Shown one piece after another: positions 28,432 through 61,131 of a stretch of DNA of 61,140 nucleotides. The stretch covers positions 1 through 61,140 of the forward strand of contig JAZNHE010000019.1 in the NCBI GenBank assembly GCA_045576795.1, in the 5' to 3' direction. The stretch is from Eubacteriales bacterium (GTDB lineage Bacteria > Bacillota > Clostridia > Oscillospirales > CAG-272). Positions within the stretch are counted from its first letter, which is position 1. Every line of letters starts with the position of its first letter. A program made the translations under genes and the position numbers. Under the pieces are notes generated by a model. That model saw nothing but the letters and a program-made list of their open reading frames with translations, ran no database searches and was not told the origin of the DNA.

Positions 28432-28460
28432 ATTATAAAGCAAATTCAAGAATTTGTCAA
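28432..28460 (-). promoter_or_regulatory. sigma70-type promoter of the ABC exporter operon
   Basis: rc strand reads TTGACA (28460-28455), 17 nt, TATAAT (28437-28432). Confidence 0.6.
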
Positions 28461-28557
28461 TGATTTCAAAAGCATTTTCAAATCATAAAAGACCGATATT
28501 TCGTCTTTTTTCAACCCCCTTACAAATAGTTTTCTTACACATTTCTCTTCTAATATG

Positions 28558-28586
28558 TTGACATTTTCACAGCTATGTGATAGAAT
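28558..28586 (+). promoter_or_regulatory. sigma70-type promoter driving the tRNA-Arg transcription unit
   Basis: TTGACA (28558-28563), 17 nt, TAGAAT (28581-28586) with extended -10 TGa. Confidence 0.7.
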
Positions 28587-28645
28587 ATATGAGCGCAACG
28601 GCATAAATCTCGCAACCGCTCCAAAAAGTGCAAATCACAGCCGAG

Positions 28646-28668
28646 CATAACGCCTGCATAGTTAAATG
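28646..28668 (+). pseudogene. Truncated 5' copy of tRNA-Arg(CCT): leader + acceptor 5' strand + D-arm start
   Basis: CATAACGCCTGCATAGTTAAATG matches 28987-29009 at 22 of 23 positions. It diverges completely after the D-loop G. Confidence 0.85.
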
Positions 28669-28986
28669 TAGCAAGCTAAAAACAACTGAGTGTTGTTTTT
28701 GGCGTAGCGAAACCACCCAAAGCAAAGATCAGGCAAAGCTGAATTTGTTTTTATCCGACGCATACCGCTTGCGGTATATTGCGTTATTCGTCGTGTACGA
28801 CCGACGAATAGCAAACTATGCGACGGTGGCGTAATATAATAAGCCCCTCATAAATAATAGGTCTATTCTACAGGATAGCCCGAAACGCCATTGGGATAGG
28901 CTCAACACCACAAGGATTTTGTGTCCTAAATCTGCCAAACGAAGTTTTGTACGTCATTTCTACACCCGAGTGCCAATACAACTAAA
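28669..28986 (+). ncRNA. Candidate structured non-coding insert co-transcribed with tRNA-Arg (unclassified)
   Basis: No SD-preceded ORF. Stacked hairpins: 12-bp GCTAAAAACAAC/GTTGTTTTTGGC (28675-28703); ACGCA-TACCG-CTTG-CGGTA-TAT-TGCGT (28758-28784); ATTCGTCG/CGACGAAT (28786-28809); GGCGT/ACGCC (28828-28889). There is no terminator until after the tRNA. Confidence 0.4.
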
Positions 28987-28992
28987 CATCAC

Positions 28993-29067
28993 GCCTGCAT
29001 AGTTAAATGGATATAATAAACCCCTCCTAAGGGTTAGTTATGGGTTCGATTCCCGTTGCGGGTGCCA
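28993..29067 (+). tRNA. tRNA-Arg (anticodon CCT)
   Basis: Hand-folded cloverleaf: acceptor GCCTGCA/TGCGGGT (two G-U pairs), D-stem GTTA/TAAT, anticodon stem AACCC/GGGTT with loop C-T-CCT-A-A, T-arm ATGGG-TTCGATT-CCCGT, encoded GCCA 3' end. Confidence 0.85.
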
Positions 29068-29068
29068 T

Positions 29069-29103
29069 AAAAACAAGGTCTACCTCAAGTAGATCTTGTT
29101 TTA
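29069..29103 (+). terminator. Rho-independent terminator after tRNA-Arg
   Basis: Stem ACAAGGTCTAC (29073-29083) / GTAGATCTTGT (29089-29099), followed by TTTTAC. Confidence 0.7.
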
Positions 29104-29139
29104 CTTTATTTCACTTTTTCCACTCTTTCCTATCAAGGA

Positions 29140-29168
29140 TTGACACTGAGATCAAATTATGGTAGACT
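29140..29168 (+). promoter_or_regulatory. sigma70-type promoter of the 410-aa membrane protein gene
   Basis: TTGACA (29140-29145), 17 nt, TAGACT (29163-29168) with extended -10 TGg. Confidence 0.6.
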
Positions 29169-29220: not shown

Positions 29221-30453
29221 ATGATCGAGCAAATCAAAGCGAAAAATTCAAAGAGCTTCTATTGTATAAGAGGCTTTCTGATATTTGTTTCCTTTTTCGT
29301 AATATCAAAGCTGACAACACTCAGCACTACACTATTCTCCCTGCCATACGGTGGAGAAACTTCTCCTATATATGGAACACTCCCTAACCCCGTAGTATAT
29401 ATCATATGCTCCGTTGCTGCAATCTTTATATTCAATTCGGTTTCTCTCGCCTTTGCAACGTTTGACAGGAATGAAATGAAAAACTTCCTGGAAAGAGAAG
29501 AAACGCAAATCCACCTCACAAAAGAAATAGCAAACATTCTGAAAACGCCTCATCTGATTATTGAAATTGCAGTATCTCTCGTATTCACCGCTATCACGGC
29601 GCTTATTGGCGGTTTCTACGAAATCGGTGGAATTTTCTTTGATAGCACACACCGCGGTGGTTGGTTTCCGACGGTTATCCTGCTCCCGATTTGCTTTGCA
29701 ATCTCAATATTCGCAAAATATGAAGCAAGACGCTATTGGATAAAGTTAAATAGAGAAAATAACCTCGAAAAGGTTACACGCCCCTATGCTTTAGTATTAA
29801 GGATGATTATCATTCTCTTTATGTATCCTCTCCTATTCCCACTTGCGCCGATTATGGCAGCTGCAGTATACAGCGCTTTTGCTATCCTTTTCACCCTATT
29901 CAAAACACTGACGATTGTGGGAATAATAATCGTGCTTATACTTATACCGATAATTTTCGTTCTTATTCCATACTTAAAATTCATCAGCAGAAGAAGAAGA
30001 TTTTTCAAAAAGATGAAGAGGATAGCAAATACCGAGGGATACACGGTAAGCAACCTCAAAGACGCATACGCATACTTCAAGAAATCGGGCAGGACTTGTT
30101 CATTTGATCTTGCACTGGGAGATGCAACGTACAACTGTATAGTTATCAGTACGTCAAGGCGCGGTGTGCCTCTTGTATTTGAGTCACCGACAAACGCGCA
30201 TTTTGAACACAGGCTTGGTACAGACGGACACAACCTCTCAATGAAGCGTAACGTGGATCTGTTCCCCCGAGGCGATGGTAAGAAGATACTTATAGTACTT
30301 CCGAGTCCAAAGCACGTCTTTGTCACCGACGGAATAAAACGCAAAAGATTGTCTCAATCCGAAAAGCTATGGGAATATACCATCCACGACGATGCATCCT
30401 TCCTCGGCACAATGAGTAGGAAATCTCTCGATAAATCAGCGACCTACGATTAA
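29221..30453 (+). CDS. Hypothetical polytopic membrane protein with ~150-aa basic cytoplasmic C-terminal domain
   Basis: SD AAGGAG 7 nt upstream. About 8 hydrophobic helices, then an RRRRFFKKMKR stop-transfer segment and a soluble domain. No family recognised. Confidence 0.7.
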   Translation: MIEQIKAKNSKSFYCIRGFLIFVSFFVISKLTTLSTTLFSLPYGGETSPIYGTLPNPVVYIICSVAAIFIFNSVSLAFATFDRNEMKNFLEREETQIHLTKEIANILKTPHLIIEIAVSLVFTAITALIGGFYEIGGIFFDSTHRGGWFPTVILLPICFAISIFAKYEARRYWIKLNRENNLEKVTRPYALVLRMIIILFMYPLLFPLAPIMAAAVYSAFAILFTLFKTLTIVGIIIVLILIPIIFVLIPYLKFISRRRRFFKKMKRIANTEGYTVSNLKDAYAYFKKSGRTCSFDLALGDATYNCIVISTSRRGVPLVFESPTNAHFEHRLGTDGHNLSMKRNVDLFPRGDGKKILIVLPSPKHVFVTDGIKRKRLSQSEKLWEYTIHDDASFLGTMSRKSLDKSATYD

Positions 30454-30850: not shown

Positions 30851-33466
30851 ATGATGAACAAGAGAATTATAGTACTTATGATTTCTCTTATGGTGATGCT
30901 CGTCGTTGCACTTGGTGTAACAAGCTGTAATCTCGTTGATGAATGCGAGCACGACTGGGCACCCGCCACCTGCACAGAACCCAAGACCTGTAAGCTTTGT
31001 CAAGCTACCGAGGGTACTCCCCTTACACATACCGGCGGCAAGGCAACTTGTAAGGGAAAGGCAGTATGTGTTTTATGTCAACAGCCGTATGGAGAGCTGG
31101 CTGACCACGTATGGGTAGAGGCTACCTGTACCGACGCGGCTTACTGCTCCGTATGTGATATGGAAAACGGATATAAGCTCGGTCATTACTCCGAGGTTAT
31201 CAAATCCTGTAACGAGTACACCAAGTGTGACCGTTGTAACAAGAACTACATACCCGGTCACATAATGGGTGAGGCTACTTGTACTGCTCCCAGCACGTGC
31301 ACACGCGTAGGCTGTGGTCATACTGTAGGTGATCCCCTTGGCCACAATATGAAGAATCCTACCTGTACGGAGCCTGCTACCTGTAGTCGCTGCGATCATA
31401 CAGAGGGCAATCCTCTCGGTCACGATTGGGCAGATGCTACTTGTACTACTCCCAAGACCTGTAATGTATGTCGCGCAACAGAGGGCGCAGCACTCGGTCA
31501 CGATTGGGCAGATGCTACTTGTACCGCTCCCAAGACCTGTAATACCTGTCATGCAACAGAGGGTGAGGCACTTAACCACTTCTGCGTAGACGTTAGCTCC
31601 GTTGCTCCTACATGTACCGAGGACGGTTACGTTGTAAGAGAATGTGTACGTTGCGACTTTGTAAGAGTGGATTACGGCATGGATAACAATACCAAGCTCG
31701 GTCACGAGCTTGTATCTCATCCATACAAGTATGCAACCTGTACCGAGGACGGCCACAACGCTTACGTTGAATGTACGCGCGATGACTGTGGTTACACCAC
31801 CTTTAAGGCTATCCCGGCATACGGTCACAATATGCTCCCTGCTACCTGTACGCTTCCCAGCACATGTAGCCGTTACGGTTGTGGTCACACCGAGGGCGAC
31901 GCGCTCGGACATACCGCCGGCGATGCAGCTACTTGTATCTCCGATCAGATCTGTACCGTATGTAACACAGTTCTCGTTCCAAAATTCGGACATGTGTGGA
32001 GCGCATGGACTCCCAACGATGATGGAACAACTCATACAAGAGTATGCTCAAATAACACCTGTGACGATTGTGTAGAAAACGCTGACTGTAACGGTCCTAC
32101 AGCTACATGTACTACCGATCAGGTATGCAATGCATGTGCAAGAGTTATGAATGTAGCTACCGGTCATACTCCCGGTGATGCTCCCACATGTACAGAGGAT
32201 CAGATCTGTCTCACCTGCGGTGAGGTTCTCGCTGACAGACTCGGCCACGCTCTCGTTGGCGCTACCTGCACAGAGCCTGTGAAGTGTACTCGCGAGGGCT
32301 GTGATTACACAGAGGGCAACGCTCTCGATCACGTATGGAGTGCTTGGGTAAGCAACAACAACGGAACTCATACAAAGACCTGTTCAAACGATCCTACTCA
32401 TGTAATCACTCTCCACTGCGCAAGCACCGAGACAGTTAAGTGCGGTGTTGACGTAGTATGTAACGATTGCGGATATGTAATTGAGGAAGCTCCCGATCAC
32501 GACTATCTCGTAGTAGTTACCGATCCCACCTGTCTTGTAGGCGGTTACACCACTTACACTTGTCAGCGTGAGGGCTGCGGTCACTCATACGTTGGTGATG
32601 AGGTTGATGCTCTTGGACACGACTATCTTACAACAGTTACCGATCCTACCTGTCTTGCAGGTGGATATACCACTCATACATGTCAGCGTGAGGATTGCGG
32701 TCACTCCTACGTATCCGATGAGGTTGATGCTCTCGGACACAACTATGGCGAATGGACAGTTGCAGACGGCACTCATACAAGAGTATGTCAGAATGACCAG
32801 ACTCACGTAGAGACCGGCAAGTGTGTATCCGACACCACTGCAGATTGTGAAAATGCCCAGATCTGTAGCGTATGTAACAATGTTATGACACCTGCTCTCG
32901 GTCACAACTGGAGCGAGTGGGAGGTTGTTAAGGGCACTCACACAAGAGTATGCCAGAATGATGAAACACACGTTGAGAGTGGCAGCTGCCACGGTGCACC
33001 CGCTACATGCGAGGATGCACAGGTTTGTGAAGTATGCTCTACCGTTATGACACGTGCGCTCGGTCACAGATGGGGCGACTGGACATCCAACGGCAACGGC
33101 ACTCACACAAGAATCTGCGCTAACAACGTTACTCACACCGAAACCGCTGATTGCGCCGGTGTAAAGGCTTCTTGTACTTCTCCTGCATTCTGCTCGAGCT
33201 GTAACACAAACTACGGCACAGCTCTCGGCCACAGCTACGACTATGCTTGTGATGATGCATGTAACATCTGCTCTGCTGTAAGAGCATCTGCTATCCACAT
33301 CGATGACAACACAGACGATATTTGTGACAACTGCAACCAGAAGATGCCTCGTGAGCCTCGCACACCCGGTCAGAAGATTGGTATCGTGCTTCTCTGCCTC
33401 GCAACTGCAGGCGGCGGCGGATTCCTTGTATACTGGTTTGTATTCAAGAAGAAGCTCATAAAGTAA
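30851..33466 (+). CDS. Cys/His-rich repeat surface protein (lipobox signal peptide + C-terminal TM anchor)
   Basis: SD AGGAGG. N-terminus ...VVALGVTSC is lipobox-like. More than 20 modules of the form C-T-x-P-x-x-C-x-x-C-...-G-x-x-L-G-H, with some adjacent modules near-identical at DNA level (31420-31580; 32500-32750). C-terminal IGIVLLCLATAGGGGFLVYWFVF-KKKLIK. Confidence 0.8.
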   Translation: MMNKRIIVLMISLMVMLVVALGVTSCNLVDECEHDWAPATCTEPKTCKLCQATEGTPLTHTGGKATCKGKAVCVLCQQPYGELADHVWVEATCTDAAYCSVCDMENGYKLGHYSEVIKSCNEYTKCDRCNKNYIPGHIMGEATCTAPSTCTRVGCGHTVGDPLGHNMKNPTCTEPATCSRCDHTEGNPLGHDWADATCTTPKTCNVCRATEGAALGHDWADATCTAPKTCNTCHATEGEALNHFCVDVSSVAPTCTEDGYVVRECVRCDFVRVDYGMDNNTKLGHELVSHPYKYATCTEDGHNAYVECTRDDCGYTTFKAIPAYGHNMLPATCTLPSTCSRYGCGHTEGDALGHTAGDAATCISDQICTVCNTVLVPKFGHVWSAWTPNDDGTTHTRVCSNNTCDDCVENADCNGPTATCTTDQVCNACARVMNVATGHTPGDAPTCTEDQICLTCGEVLADRLGHALVGATCTEPVKCTREGCDYTEGNALDHVWSAWVSNNNGTHTKTCSNDPTHVITLHCASTETVKCGVDVVCNDCGYVIEEAPDHDYLVVVTDPTCLVGGYTTYTCQREGCGHSYVGDEVDALGHDYLTTVTDPTCLAGGYTTHTCQREDCGHSYVSDEVDALGHNYGEWTVADGTHTRVCQNDQTHVETGKCVSDTTADCENAQICSVCNNVMTPALGHNWSEWEVVKGTHTRVCQNDETHVESGSCHGAPATCEDAQVCEVCSTVMTRALGHRWGDWTSNGNGTHTRICANNVTHTETADCAGVKASCTSPAFCSSCNTNYGTALGHSYDYACDDACNICSAVRASAIHIDDNTDDICDNCNQKMPREPRTPGQKIGIVLLCLATAGGGGFLVYWFVFKKKLIK

Positions 33467-60504: not shown

Positions 60505-60533
60505 TTGACAAAACGTCTTAAGTGTGTTATTAT
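60505..60533 (+). promoter_or_regulatory. sigma70-type promoter driving the tRNA-Leu transcription unit
   Basis: TTGACA (60505-60510), 17 nt, TATTAT (60528-60533) with extended -10 TGt. Confidence 0.65.
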
Positions 60534-60561
60534 TATTTAGCGTGAAAAACGCAACTAATAT

Positions 60562-60598
60562 GCGGACGTGGCGGAATTGGCAGACGCGCTGGTTTCAG
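60562..60598 (+). pseudogene. Truncated 5' half of tRNA-Leu(CAG): acceptor strand through anticodon
   Basis: 37 of 37 nt identical to 61047-61083. It ends exactly after the anticodon CAG and is followed by an unrelated CUUG-loop hairpin (60599-60622). Confidence 0.9.
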
Positions 60599-60625
60599 CT
60601 TTCGACACCTTGGTGACGAAAGCAA

Positions 60626-60653
60626 TTGAAAGTTGAAAATGGAAAATTGAAAA
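60626..60653 (+). repeat. Left arm of heptad-built inverted repeat (TTGAAAG TTGAAAA TGGAAAA TTGAAAA)
   Basis: Complementary at 24 of 28 positions to 61011-61038. All four non-Watson-Crick positions fall at heptad position 7. Confidence 0.85.
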
Positions 60654-60668
60654 TGAGGAGAAACGGAT

Positions 60669-61010
60669 ATGGCAAACATAATCGAAGAAAAATCTTTTGC
60701 GTTTGCTATAAGGATCGTCAATCTTTATAAGCATTTAAATGAAGTAAAAAAAGAATTCGTTTTGTCCAAGCAACTTTTAAGAAGTGGAACAAGCATCGGT
60801 GCAAACGTGGCAGAAGCAGAACAGGCTCAAAGCACTCCGGACTTTGTATCCAAAATGAGCATTGCCTTAAAAGAGGCATCAGAAACAAAATATTGGATCA
60901 GACTTTTGGCTTCAACGAGTTACCTGACAGAAGCCGAGACTGTTTCTATATTAAACGATTGTGTTGAGATTGAAAAGATTTTAGTGAGTATTATAAAATC
61001 TTCTAAATAA
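60669..61010 (+). CDS. Four-helix-bundle protein (23S rRNA intervening-sequence protein / TIGR02436, Avd-like fold)
   Basis: 113 aa. SD GAGGAG 8 nt upstream. Signature ...SKQLLRSGTSIGANVAEAEQAQSTPDFVSKMSIALKEASETKYWIRLL... is typical of this family. Confidence 0.8.
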   Translation: MANIIEEKSFAFAIRIVNLYKHLNEVKKEFVLSKQLLRSGTSIGANVAEAEQAQSTPDFVSKMSIALKEASETKYWIRLLASTSYLTEAETVSILNDCVEIEKILVSIIKSSK

Positions 61011-61038
61011 CTTTCAACTTTCCACTTTCAATTTTCAA
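61011..61038 (+). repeat. Right arm of heptad-built inverted repeat (CTTTCAA CTTTCCA CTTTCAA TTTTCAA)
   Basis: Starts immediately after the ORF stop codon. It pairs with 60626-60653. Confidence 0.85.
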
Positions 61039-61046
61039 CTGAATAA

Positions 61047-61131
61047 GCGGACGTGGCGGAATTGGCAGACGCGCTGGTTTCAGGTTCCAGTGAAGCAATT
61101 CATGTGGGTTCAAGTCCCGTCGTCCGCACCA
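61047..61131 (+). tRNA. tRNA-Leu (anticodon CAG), class II with long variable arm
   Basis: Acceptor GCGGACG/CGTCCGC, D-arm GCG-GAATTGGCAGA-CGC, anticodon loop TT-CAG-GT, variable arm TGAAGCAATTCATGT, T-loop TTCAAGT, encoded ACCA. Confidence 0.85.

Follow-up and report, generated by a model that had tools for sequence, protein, structure and literature searches.

Small structured modules form a mosaic upstream of tRNA-Arg(CCT) in a Clostridia genome fragment

The region upstream of a tRNA-Arg(CCT) gene was analyzed in a 61,140-nt stretch of DNA, hereafter the window, from contig JAZNHE010000019.1 (Eubacteriales bacterium, assembly GCA_045576795.1). The insert preceding this gene is not a single unit but a mosaic made up of at least three distinct modules that recur elsewhere. 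Module A folds into two hairpins that are conserved by compensatory changes, module C is nested inside it, and module B follows a tRNA remnant. We consider the chances evenly balanced that modules A and C are mobile inserts, structured, strand-specific and non-autonomous, which a redundant tRNA copy tolerates and which are co-transcribed with the tRNA and removed with the leader by RNase P.

Structure of the tRNA-Arg(CCT) unit

The unit comprises the following parts, all on the + strand.

28558 to 28586, +: sigma-70-type promoter, TTGACA-17-TAGAAT with a TG-extended -10 hexamer, 11 of 12 consensus matches
28600 to 28651, +: leader with a decayed likeness to the 3' end of module B and the tRNA leader (repeats D5 and D1)
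28652 to 28668, +: copy of tRNA-Arg positions 1-17 (acceptor 5' strand, D-stem 5' strand and start of the D-loop), 17/17 identical
28669 to 28833, +: module A, a two-hairpin structured element enlarged by a nested insert (match to covariance model R1, family covariation)
28675 to 28703, +: helix P2 of module A, an A/U-tract stem of 12 bp with the pentaloop UGAGU (covariation)
28713 to 28725, +: 5' strand of helix P4, CCACC, and the invariant CAAAGCAA; pairs with GGTGG at 28825-28829
28761 to 28814, +: compact variant of module C, CATACCGC-TTG-GCGGTATATTGC followed by a hairpin and AGCAA, inside module A between CGACG and ACTATGCG
28815 to 28833, +: 3' part of module A, with the invariant (AC)TATGCGAC, the P4 3' strand GGTGG and a tail (alignment, covariation)
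28834 to 28853, +: remnant of tRNA-Arg positions ~19-38 with the anticodon CCT changed to CAT, 18/20 (repeat D2)
28854 to 28992, +: module B and the tRNA leader, replacing the T arm of the pseudo-copy (9 loci, 76% mean column identity)
28993 to 29067, +: intact tRNA-Arg(CCT) with encoded CCA (ARAGORN; Rfam tRNA model, 57.9 bits)
29070 to 29102, +: intrinsic terminator, 14-bp stem and T run (repeat finder, consensus scan)

The limits of module A in the window were taken from a case in which it interrupts an open reading frame (ORF), described below. A first-pass annotation of the window, made by a model from its letters and predicted ORFs, had already recognized the tRNA, on which ARAGORN and Rfam agree, and the promoter, which the consensus scan recovered together with the TG before its -10 hexamer. 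In the consensus scan of the + strand no second promoter-like site occurs from the promoter to the tRNA, and 29070-29102 is the sole terminator-like site from the promoter to the next gene. This layout supports the earlier proposal that the stretch and the tRNA form one transcript with a lone terminator 3' of the tRNA.

The reported 22/23 copy of the tRNA leader and first 17 tRNA bases proved to be the core of a longer direct repeat, D1 (28637-28668 and 28978-29009, 32 nt, 84% identical; repeat finder). This first tRNA copy is broken in the D-loop, as are the copies at 12 other tRNA-Arg loci. The presence of D1 together with a further repeat, D5 (28604-28618 resembling 28927-28941; repeat finder), in the leader at 28600-28651 indicates a history of tandem duplication. 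The tRNA remnant at 28834-28853 aligns with positions 29011-29030 of the intact gene, and relatives keep the same remnant 3' of module A. Due to this collinearity the first copy has to be regarded as an interrupted longer tRNA fragment, not as 23 nt alone. The repeat finder also detected a weak resemblance of 28849-28865 to 29066-29082, an echo of the tRNA trailer.

Between the two copies the first-pass annotation had described a single insert of 318 nt, which is resolved here into module A, nested module C, the tRNA remnant and module B. Its 12-bp helix at 28675-28703 corresponds to P2 of the conserved element and covaries. The compact module C at 28761-28814 accounts for the reported "CUUG-tetraloop" helix (28758-28784) and 8-bp helix (28786-28809), both of which are present and jointly form the nested second element. 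The putative GGCGT/ACGCC closing helix at 28828-28889 was not kept in L064 and L099 (numbers with L denote loci fetched for comparison), relatives with the same two modules.

Module A is a structured family

Module A has a canonical length of ~115 nt and consists of a 5' hairpin with an A/U tract and a long irregular hairpin, in whose internal loops the invariant CAAAGCAA and UAUGCGAC are located. In an alignment of 13 copies compensatory changes were found in both hairpin P2 and the long-range helix. The covariance model R1, built from 13 copies, detected about 80 copies in 68 fetched loci in addition to the window, where it matched once, at 28652-28859 (133.9 bits, E 4e-31); as R1 contains tRNA-Arg flanks, its scores are inflated for the tRNA-Arg context. 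The pattern CCAAAGCAA-N30-60-TATGCGACG likewise retrieved many true copies from similar genomes, often several per metagenome-assembled genome (MAG) and sometimes in tandem.

Base pairing was assessed on 83 distinct aligned sequences with 500 shuffles. Of the cells at paired positions 94.9% were paired, compared with 73.8% for shuffled and 35-52% for slid partners. Double changes were observed in 315 cells, as opposed to 75.6 for shuffled and 25-58 for slid partners, and none of the 500 shuffles reached the observed value. In P2 97.5% of the cells were paired and all 11 pairs showed compensatory changes. Since the alignment had been fitted to the model, pairing was re-tested by a plain mutual-information scan, which recovered P2, the base of P3, and P4 and gave no pseudoknot within module A. 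The true helices contain 61 G-U but only 6 A-C pairs (10:1). This indicates that the fold belongs to one strand, as RNA or as the corresponding single-stranded DNA. The predicted fold was obtained for a canonical copy (z-score -3.4).

The stretch is therefore structured as well as non-coding, as had been proposed, on the ground that its main helices covary; covariation is strong for the main helices of module A and weak for module B. The suggestion of an unclassified RNA also stands. Among the 4227 models of Rfam 15, the tRNA alone was matched at E<=10 in window positions 28450-29150, and the insert with its leader (28590-28992) gave none even at this threshold. Canonical and stand-alone copies of module A from 38 loci gave no Rfam match at gathering score, nor did L089 (1700-2250) at E<=10. 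Hammerhead, hairpin, twister, HDV-like, T-box and K-turn motifs were compared by eye with consensus sequences; none fits, and none has support from Rfam. Literature searches retrieved no description of elements like module A.

Recurrence at tRNA-Arg loci

A scan for the first 26 bases of the tRNA, with one genome per species, gave at least 119 loci. All carriers are MAG fragments, and the named records among the listed tRNA-Arg loci are MAGs of gut and rumen Clostridia (Oscillospiraceae, Acutalibacteraceae, Lachnospiraceae and "Eubacteriales"). In 23 of the 119 listed loci the first 17 bases of the tRNA recur (at most 2 mismatches) 38-350 nt upstream of the real tRNA. This recurrence, together with that at tRNA-Leu, bears out the earlier statement that the architecture is beyond coincidence.

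The regions of the 23 loci were read, and the tRNA-Arg leaders are mosaics of recurring pieces. Module A is inserted in the D-loop after ..AAATG, module B follows position ~45 and replaces the T arm, and module C occupies the T-loop at L089, while at some loci (L012) bare 23-nt repeats occur without insert. Little covariation was found in module B, whose sequences (9 loci) are too few and too similar for a structure test. None of the fetched loci comes from a close relative of the window genome. A scan of JGI metagenomes with a 23-mer gave 4 matches only.

Three further features of these leaders were observed. A fourth insert type, module D, follows tRNA-Arg position ~24 in L027, L076 and L092; it contains a hairpin at its center and the conserved motif GAGAACCTTGTTA.TCGCT. 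At L012 (1897-1965) a 23-nt unit composed of the first 16 nt of tRNA-Arg and the leader TAAATAC occurs three times in tandem with no insert, possibly a product of deletion between TTAAAT microhomologies in the D-loop and the leader. A leader motif of two hairpins, CCTTCCCCACGGGGAAGG and GGCACGGCTTTGCCGTGACGGATGAGG, recurs in L089 (1750-1800), L224, L194 and L161.

Genomic contexts of module A

A tRNA gene lies within 600 nt of 40 of the 81 nhmmer matches to module A, and all 40 are on the strand of that tRNA. The adjacent tRNAs are specific for Arg, Pro, Ser, Lys, Met, Cys and Asn. A further 24 of the 81 matches are located within 600 nt of a contig end. About 32-40 of 57 testable copies show a direct repeat whose first copy ends exactly at the 5' edge of module A; the second copy is located 14-300 nt downstream and continues into the intact target. 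The tRNA is usually broken in the D-loop after GG(TAG).

The contexts are diverse. In L163 a promoter-bearing pseudo-copy upstream of tRNA-Ser carries module A at the T stem and loop, and a partial copy downstream of the intact tRNA-Ser, extending from the T-loop to the terminator, again carries module A. Stand-alone versions with their own closing stem and terminator are present in L163, L149, L195 and L208, and tandem arrays in L105, L087 and L221. In L343 module A lies antisense, downstream of tRNA-Leu. In three species it is found, single or in tandem, at the 3' end of lysS, on the opposite strand just past the stop codon, with ~24 nt of the lysS end duplicated ahead of each copy:

L207, 6390 to 6620, antisense: module A at lysS
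L221, 1960 to 2330, antisense: module A at lysS
L177, 3755 to 4010, antisense: module A at lysS

The helix sequences of the L207 copy differ from those of the near-identical L221 and L177 copies. As a separate observation, a Gut-1 RNA (RF01706, 68.8 bits) lies directly 3' of a tRNA in L104 (6596-6779), upstream of a module A unit.

Insertion into an open reading frame

An ORF family of 88 amino acids (aa), represented by 359 loci and multi-copy in these genomes, includes two interrupted members. One was found among 80 kept loci (on the contig of L146) and the second in L186, at the same site in two MAGs:

L255, 1501 to 1878 (equal to L146, 6383 to 6760): ORF interrupted by module A
L186, 3630 to 3915: ORF interrupted by module A

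Alignment with uninterrupted genes places the insertion point between ..TTCCACG and ACTGCTGGAG.., and the insert of ~114 nt extends from TAGC.. to ..GGTGGAGAG. Its ends (TAGCAAG... and ...GGTGGAGAG) show neither duplicated target bases nor terminal inverted repeats; a classical miniature inverted-repeat transposable element was rejected on these grounds. In L255 the ORF measures 378 instead of 264 nt, so that the insert is a multiple of 3. The interrupted ORF of L146 also contains a stop at codon 2, which makes the insertion appear inactivating rather than spliced.

Nesting, site occupancy and module C

Relatives that share the upstream flank of L089 differ at the insertion site. L089 is filled with modules A and C; at the empty site of L111 the promoter immediately precedes the tRNA. 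L001 retains a remnant of the module A 3' end with tRNA positions 18-47, and L012 has two 23-nt stubs. The comparison with an empty site that the first-pass annotation had envisaged was possible for such relatives only, as no locus syntenic with the window is present among the fetched loci; the empty site of L111 is thus the counterpart to a filled relative, L089. Copies of module A that are at least 90% identical occur in different contexts both between loci (the tRNA-Arg D-loop in L064, after tRNA-Pro in L134) and within one MAG (L132 and L164).

Module C has the conserved ends CATACCGC..GCGGTATATTGC and CCCCGAGCGGCAA and is always located 3' of CG and 5' of A. It occupies T-loops between TTCG and A (L089, L091), anticodon loops after CTCCG (L145, L154) and module A itself between CGACG and ACTATGCG (L393), which is identical to the site of the compact variant in the window.

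The interrupted tRNA copies lack their distal parts, and an intact copy adjoins wherever downstream sequence can be inspected. Deletion of module A in 58,905 boundary combinations never produced a tRNA across the junction in ARAGORN. No guide-like complementarity between module and target was detected beyond the constant ACTATGC. The 23 tRNA-Arg loci contain neither an integrase nor an island, all inserts being 350 nt or shorter, and the surroundings of the modules in 68 loci, to a distance of 3 kb, have no recurrent protein family. No integrase or transposase domain, including Y1, was found in the 26 window ORFs tested, which are housekeeping genes or without known function. Viral contigs gave 20 pattern matches and no true module, and BLAST searches of plasmids and phages gave no match.

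The tRNA-Leu(CAG) unit

A parallel unit at tRNA-Leu(CAG), which is conserved beside tRNA-Leu in relatives, has the following layout:

60505 to 61131, +: whole tRNA-Leu(CAG) unit
60505 to 60533, +: promoter
60562 to 60598, +: tRNA 5' part up to the anticodon
60598 to 60623, +: hairpin
60624 to 60655 and 61009 to 61040, +: two strands of a stem
60672 to 61010, +: ORF
61047 to 61131, +: intact tRNA-Leu(CAG)

Judged from its sequence, the hairpin at 60598-60623 looks like a decayed remnant of the anticodon stem and variable arm (compare L347). The first-pass annotation had stated that the architecture of the tRNA-Arg unit recurs here. The layout is indeed shared, but the insert holds an ORF preceded by a Shine-Dalgarno sequence that encodes a protein of family PF05635 ("23S rRNA intervening sequence protein", E 2e-28). 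This ORF is enclosed by a long stem built of short A/T-rich repeats. The stem, which in such sequences is an RNase III substrate, and the PF05635 ORF correspond to the layout of a 23S-rRNA-type intervening sequence; the tRNA-Arg insert, having no ORF and no long closing stem, does not.

A homologous ORF with stem is located ~40 nt upstream of tRNA-Leu(CAG/TAG) in ~38 of 56 loci, and other PF05635 cassettes precede tRNA-Pro and tRNA-Arg(CCG); overall they occur in dozens of related MAGs. The 5' partial copy of tRNA-Leu is kept in some of these loci and lost in others. L335, whose protein is identical to the PF05635 protein of the window, contains three successive cassettes (1092-2445), each with a tRNA-Leu 5' half, a hairpin and an ORF, in an integron-like layout with no integrase in view. 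Considering these tRNA-Leu units, including the L335 array, the architecture is general and its cargo can be coding. The cargo of L335 comprises a PF05635 ORF, a membrane-like ORF of 176 aa and an ORF starting with MNDNVVENKSFN that is PF05635-like by eye. A diversity-generating retroelement (DGR), suggested for the tRNA-Leu unit by an Avd-like protein and two repeats, was rejected, as there is no reverse transcriptase and the two repeat differences are not adenine-specific.

Origin and function of the modules

A mobile origin of modules A and C, which we regard as about as likely as not, would have the following course. Both elements would target loop regions of tRNA genes, inserting 3' of a G and mostly in sense orientation. 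As an insert would inactivate the copy it hits, it would persist only where an intact tRNA copy adjoins. The layout of promoter and terminator suggests that the promoter at 28558 drives transcription of the whole leader, and RNase P would then cut between 28992 and 28993 and release the tRNA and a leader RNA. Movement would depend on an enzyme that acts in trans and whose gene lies elsewhere. A single-strand DNA transposase of the IS200/IS605 kind and a route via reverse transcriptase are candidates, as is host recombination via tRNA homology. The conserved fold may be the feature that is recognized by the mobilizing machinery or by RNA processing. In this explanation the ~400-nt leader is a redundant, decaying partial tRNA duplicate that was colonized by structured inserts.

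Several observations weigh against this explanation. Neither a mobilizing enzyme nor an autonomous copy was found, so that the mechanism of movement has to be inferred. Copies of module A that share a genome have usually diverged (median pairwise identity 0.70), and the combination of invariant loops with compensatory stem changes is suggestive of selection on a working RNA rather than of a recent transposon burst. The co-orientation with tRNAs also fits an RNA that needs the promoter and the processing of the tRNA. The explanation offers no mechanism for the partial tRNA duplications that accompany the inserts, and module B is confined to the tRNA-Arg leader context among the fetched loci. 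As the locus sets were gathered with exact sequence patterns and comprise listed matches only, the proportions given above are biased and the frequencies indicative only.

A bolder form of the mobile explanation, which we regard as tentative and put well below it, holds that modules A and C represent an undescribed strand-specific, fold-dependent mobile class that homes to the D-, T- and anticodon loops of tRNA genes. Such elements would act at the RNA level, for instance by self-processing, or as single-stranded DNA. Together with the PF05635 cassettes, they might turn the tRNA leaders of gut Clostridia into promoter-driven "partial tRNA + cargo" arrays that are loosely integron-like with no visible integrase.

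The main rival is that module A, perhaps also B and C, is a functional small RNA domain in tRNA operons that uses the tRNA promoter. Here the tRNA fragments would be by-products of local duplication or handles for processing and stability, and excision would be due to RNase P, RNase Z or RNase III, as in spacer-derived regulatory RNAs. This is doubtful as a full account, although one chance in several is conceded to it, and it is compatible with a mobile origin. It is favored by the invariant internal loops and compensatory stems across diverged copies, the G-U excess on the transcribed strand, the co-orientation of 40/40 copies with adjacent tRNAs, and the stand-alone copies that have a closing stem and terminator. 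The PF05635 cassette, intact beside tRNA-Leu in ~38/56 loci, further suggests that tRNA leaders host expressed cargo. However, other copies are antisense to lysS, in an operon on the opposite strand, or antisense downstream of tRNA-Leu (L343), one disrupts an ORF, and elements are nested in one another. Their presence at orthologous loci is sporadic, no conserved partner gene was found, and in the window copy the P3 region is replaced by another element. A T-box or other riboswitch was rejected as a specific form of regulatory RNA, as there is no terminator between module and tRNA, no Rfam T-box match, and gene-interior and antisense contexts occur.

The first-pass annotation had proposed site-specific insertion with repeats resembling attachment (att) sites. 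Tandem arrays (L105, L087, L221) and direct repeats of 17-45 nt on either side of the insert, where one end is an intact gene, could be attL/attR scars of integrase islands deleted to a few hundred bases, comparable to cis-mobilizable remnants. tRNA genes and the lysS 3' end are classical integrase sites, and they are the targets observed here. Repeats were indeed found at ~32-40 of 57 testable copies, but no locus contains an integrase or island: inserts in the 23 tRNA-Arg loci do not exceed 350 nt, and no protein recurs within 3 kb in 68 loci. What is duplicated here is the tRNA 5' end, broken in the D-loop. Known integrative elements carry the tRNA 3' part. Insertion as such is supported by the interrupted ORF, a simple insertion, which has no repeat and no target duplication; and a double-stranded att site does not predict covariation with a G-U excess. 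An origin from integrase islands is accordingly improbable.

Still less credit is given to the idea that the inserts are intron-like, being removed by self-cleavage and ligation or by a host enzyme, or that they have a tmRNA-like (transfer-messenger RNA) or permuted topology. The insertion sites do correspond to the D-, anticodon and T-loops of a folded tRNA, the structure is strand-specific as expected for RNA, and the ORF insertion in L255 is a multiple of 3. However, removal of module A never restores a tRNA, host copies lack 3' parts, and intact copies are present wherever the downstream sequence can be inspected. The interrupted ORF of L146 has a stop at codon 2, and no group I, group II or ribozyme family was matched at E<=10. 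The tmRNA-like arrangement suggested previously, in which the acceptor strand of the first copy would pair with the 3' end of the tRNA, does not occur in the minimum-energy fold. ARAGORN predicts no tmRNA in the window, and the first copy is dispensable in relatives, being variably truncated or lost in L001, L012, L337 and L340.

The first-pass annotation had named a merely decayed tandem tRNA copy as the finding that would refute it. That nothing more than such a duplication, with hairpins due to chance and no conserved element, occupies the region is hardly credible: the collinear tRNA remnants at 28652-28668 and 28834-28853 do show a decaying host copy, but module A is conserved far beyond the locus, in dozens of unrelated contexts, matches in the window at E 4e-31 and covaries, and modules B and C recur.

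Comparison with known systems

In their layout, modules A and C are compatible with miniature elements that have structured ends, namely the palindrome-associated elements derived from IS200/IS605 and the repetitive extragenic palindromic (REP) and REPIN elements. They are likewise multi-copy, gene-less and able to nest; module A is likewise small (~100-115 nt), hairpin-based and strand-specific. Both insert immediately downstream of a short target, ..G for module A and CG for module C; in the ORF case of module A no target bases are duplicated. In contrast to these elements, no Y1/HUH transposase was found near the modules or in the window, all of which are MAG fragments, and module A is strongly tied to tRNA genes and partial tRNA duplications. 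Its two hairpins are dissimilar and show no guide-to-target relation of the IS200/IS605 type, and its copies are diverged within a genome with invariant internal loops instead of being near-identical.

Intervening sequences of 23S rRNA are likewise structured inserts in loops of stable-RNA genes that are co-transcribed with their host, and the tRNA-Leu unit shares their hallmark, a PF05635 ORF within a long stem. Unlike them, the units described here reside in an inactivated tRNA copy, not in a fragmentation-tolerant rRNA helix, and modules A, B and C contain no ORF, in contrast to the ORF-bearing intervening sequences. Remnants of integrase att sites and cis-mobilizable elements share the partial tRNA repeats around a short insert, the intact gene at one end and the tandem accretion. 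They differ in that here the 5' part is duplicated, the break lies in the D-loop, relatives have no integrase or island, and an RNA-like fold is conserved.

Group I introns of bacterial tRNA genes are likewise structured, are located in tRNA loops and form part of the tRNA transcript. At ~115 nt module A is too small for such an intron, Rfam gave no intron match, the host tRNA cannot be restored, and an intact back-up gene lies beside the interrupted copy wherever the downstream region is accessible. Small RNAs derived from spacers of tRNA operons, such as 3'ETS-leuZ of E. coli, offer an analogy, as module A may likewise be a non-coding part of a tRNA precursor that is released by processing. 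Unlike them, module A is multi-copy and present in many contexts, including antisense to genes, and neither a target nor a sponge function is known for it.

If the mobile explanation is correct, a family of tiny structured elements uses the tRNA genes of a large group of Clostridia from gut and rumen as landing pads, and a concrete system for the movement of gene-less small elements becomes available. It would also add a well-supported family of structured RNA (or single-strand DNA) with strong covariation and dozens of copies. The source of partial tRNA duplications would be explained and possibly that of some contig breaks in MAGs, considering the 24/81 copies near a contig end. Both tRNA genes of the 61-kb window bear such units, and elements of the module A type are missed entirely by standard annotation. 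Through the tRNA-Leu cassettes, tRNA genes become a second host context of the "23S rRNA intervening sequence protein" family, which has long lacked an explanation.

Neighboring features in the window

The window ORFs flanking the tRNA-Arg unit encode ABC transporters and two proteins without Pfam match. A perfect promoter (12/12 consensus matches; 28432-28460, - strand) faces the ABC-transporter operon and is divergent from the tRNA promoter. The two long ORFs without Pfam match are located just 3' of the tRNA (29221-30453 and 30851-33466, encoding 410 and 871 aa). An exact-sequence look-up of both flanking proteins returned no record, and in a synteny attempt no relative of the 410-aa protein was found in the collection of species-representative genomes. 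Near the start of the window, a ribosomal protein L10 leader (RF00557, 47.7 bits) is present at 237-406 on the - strand.

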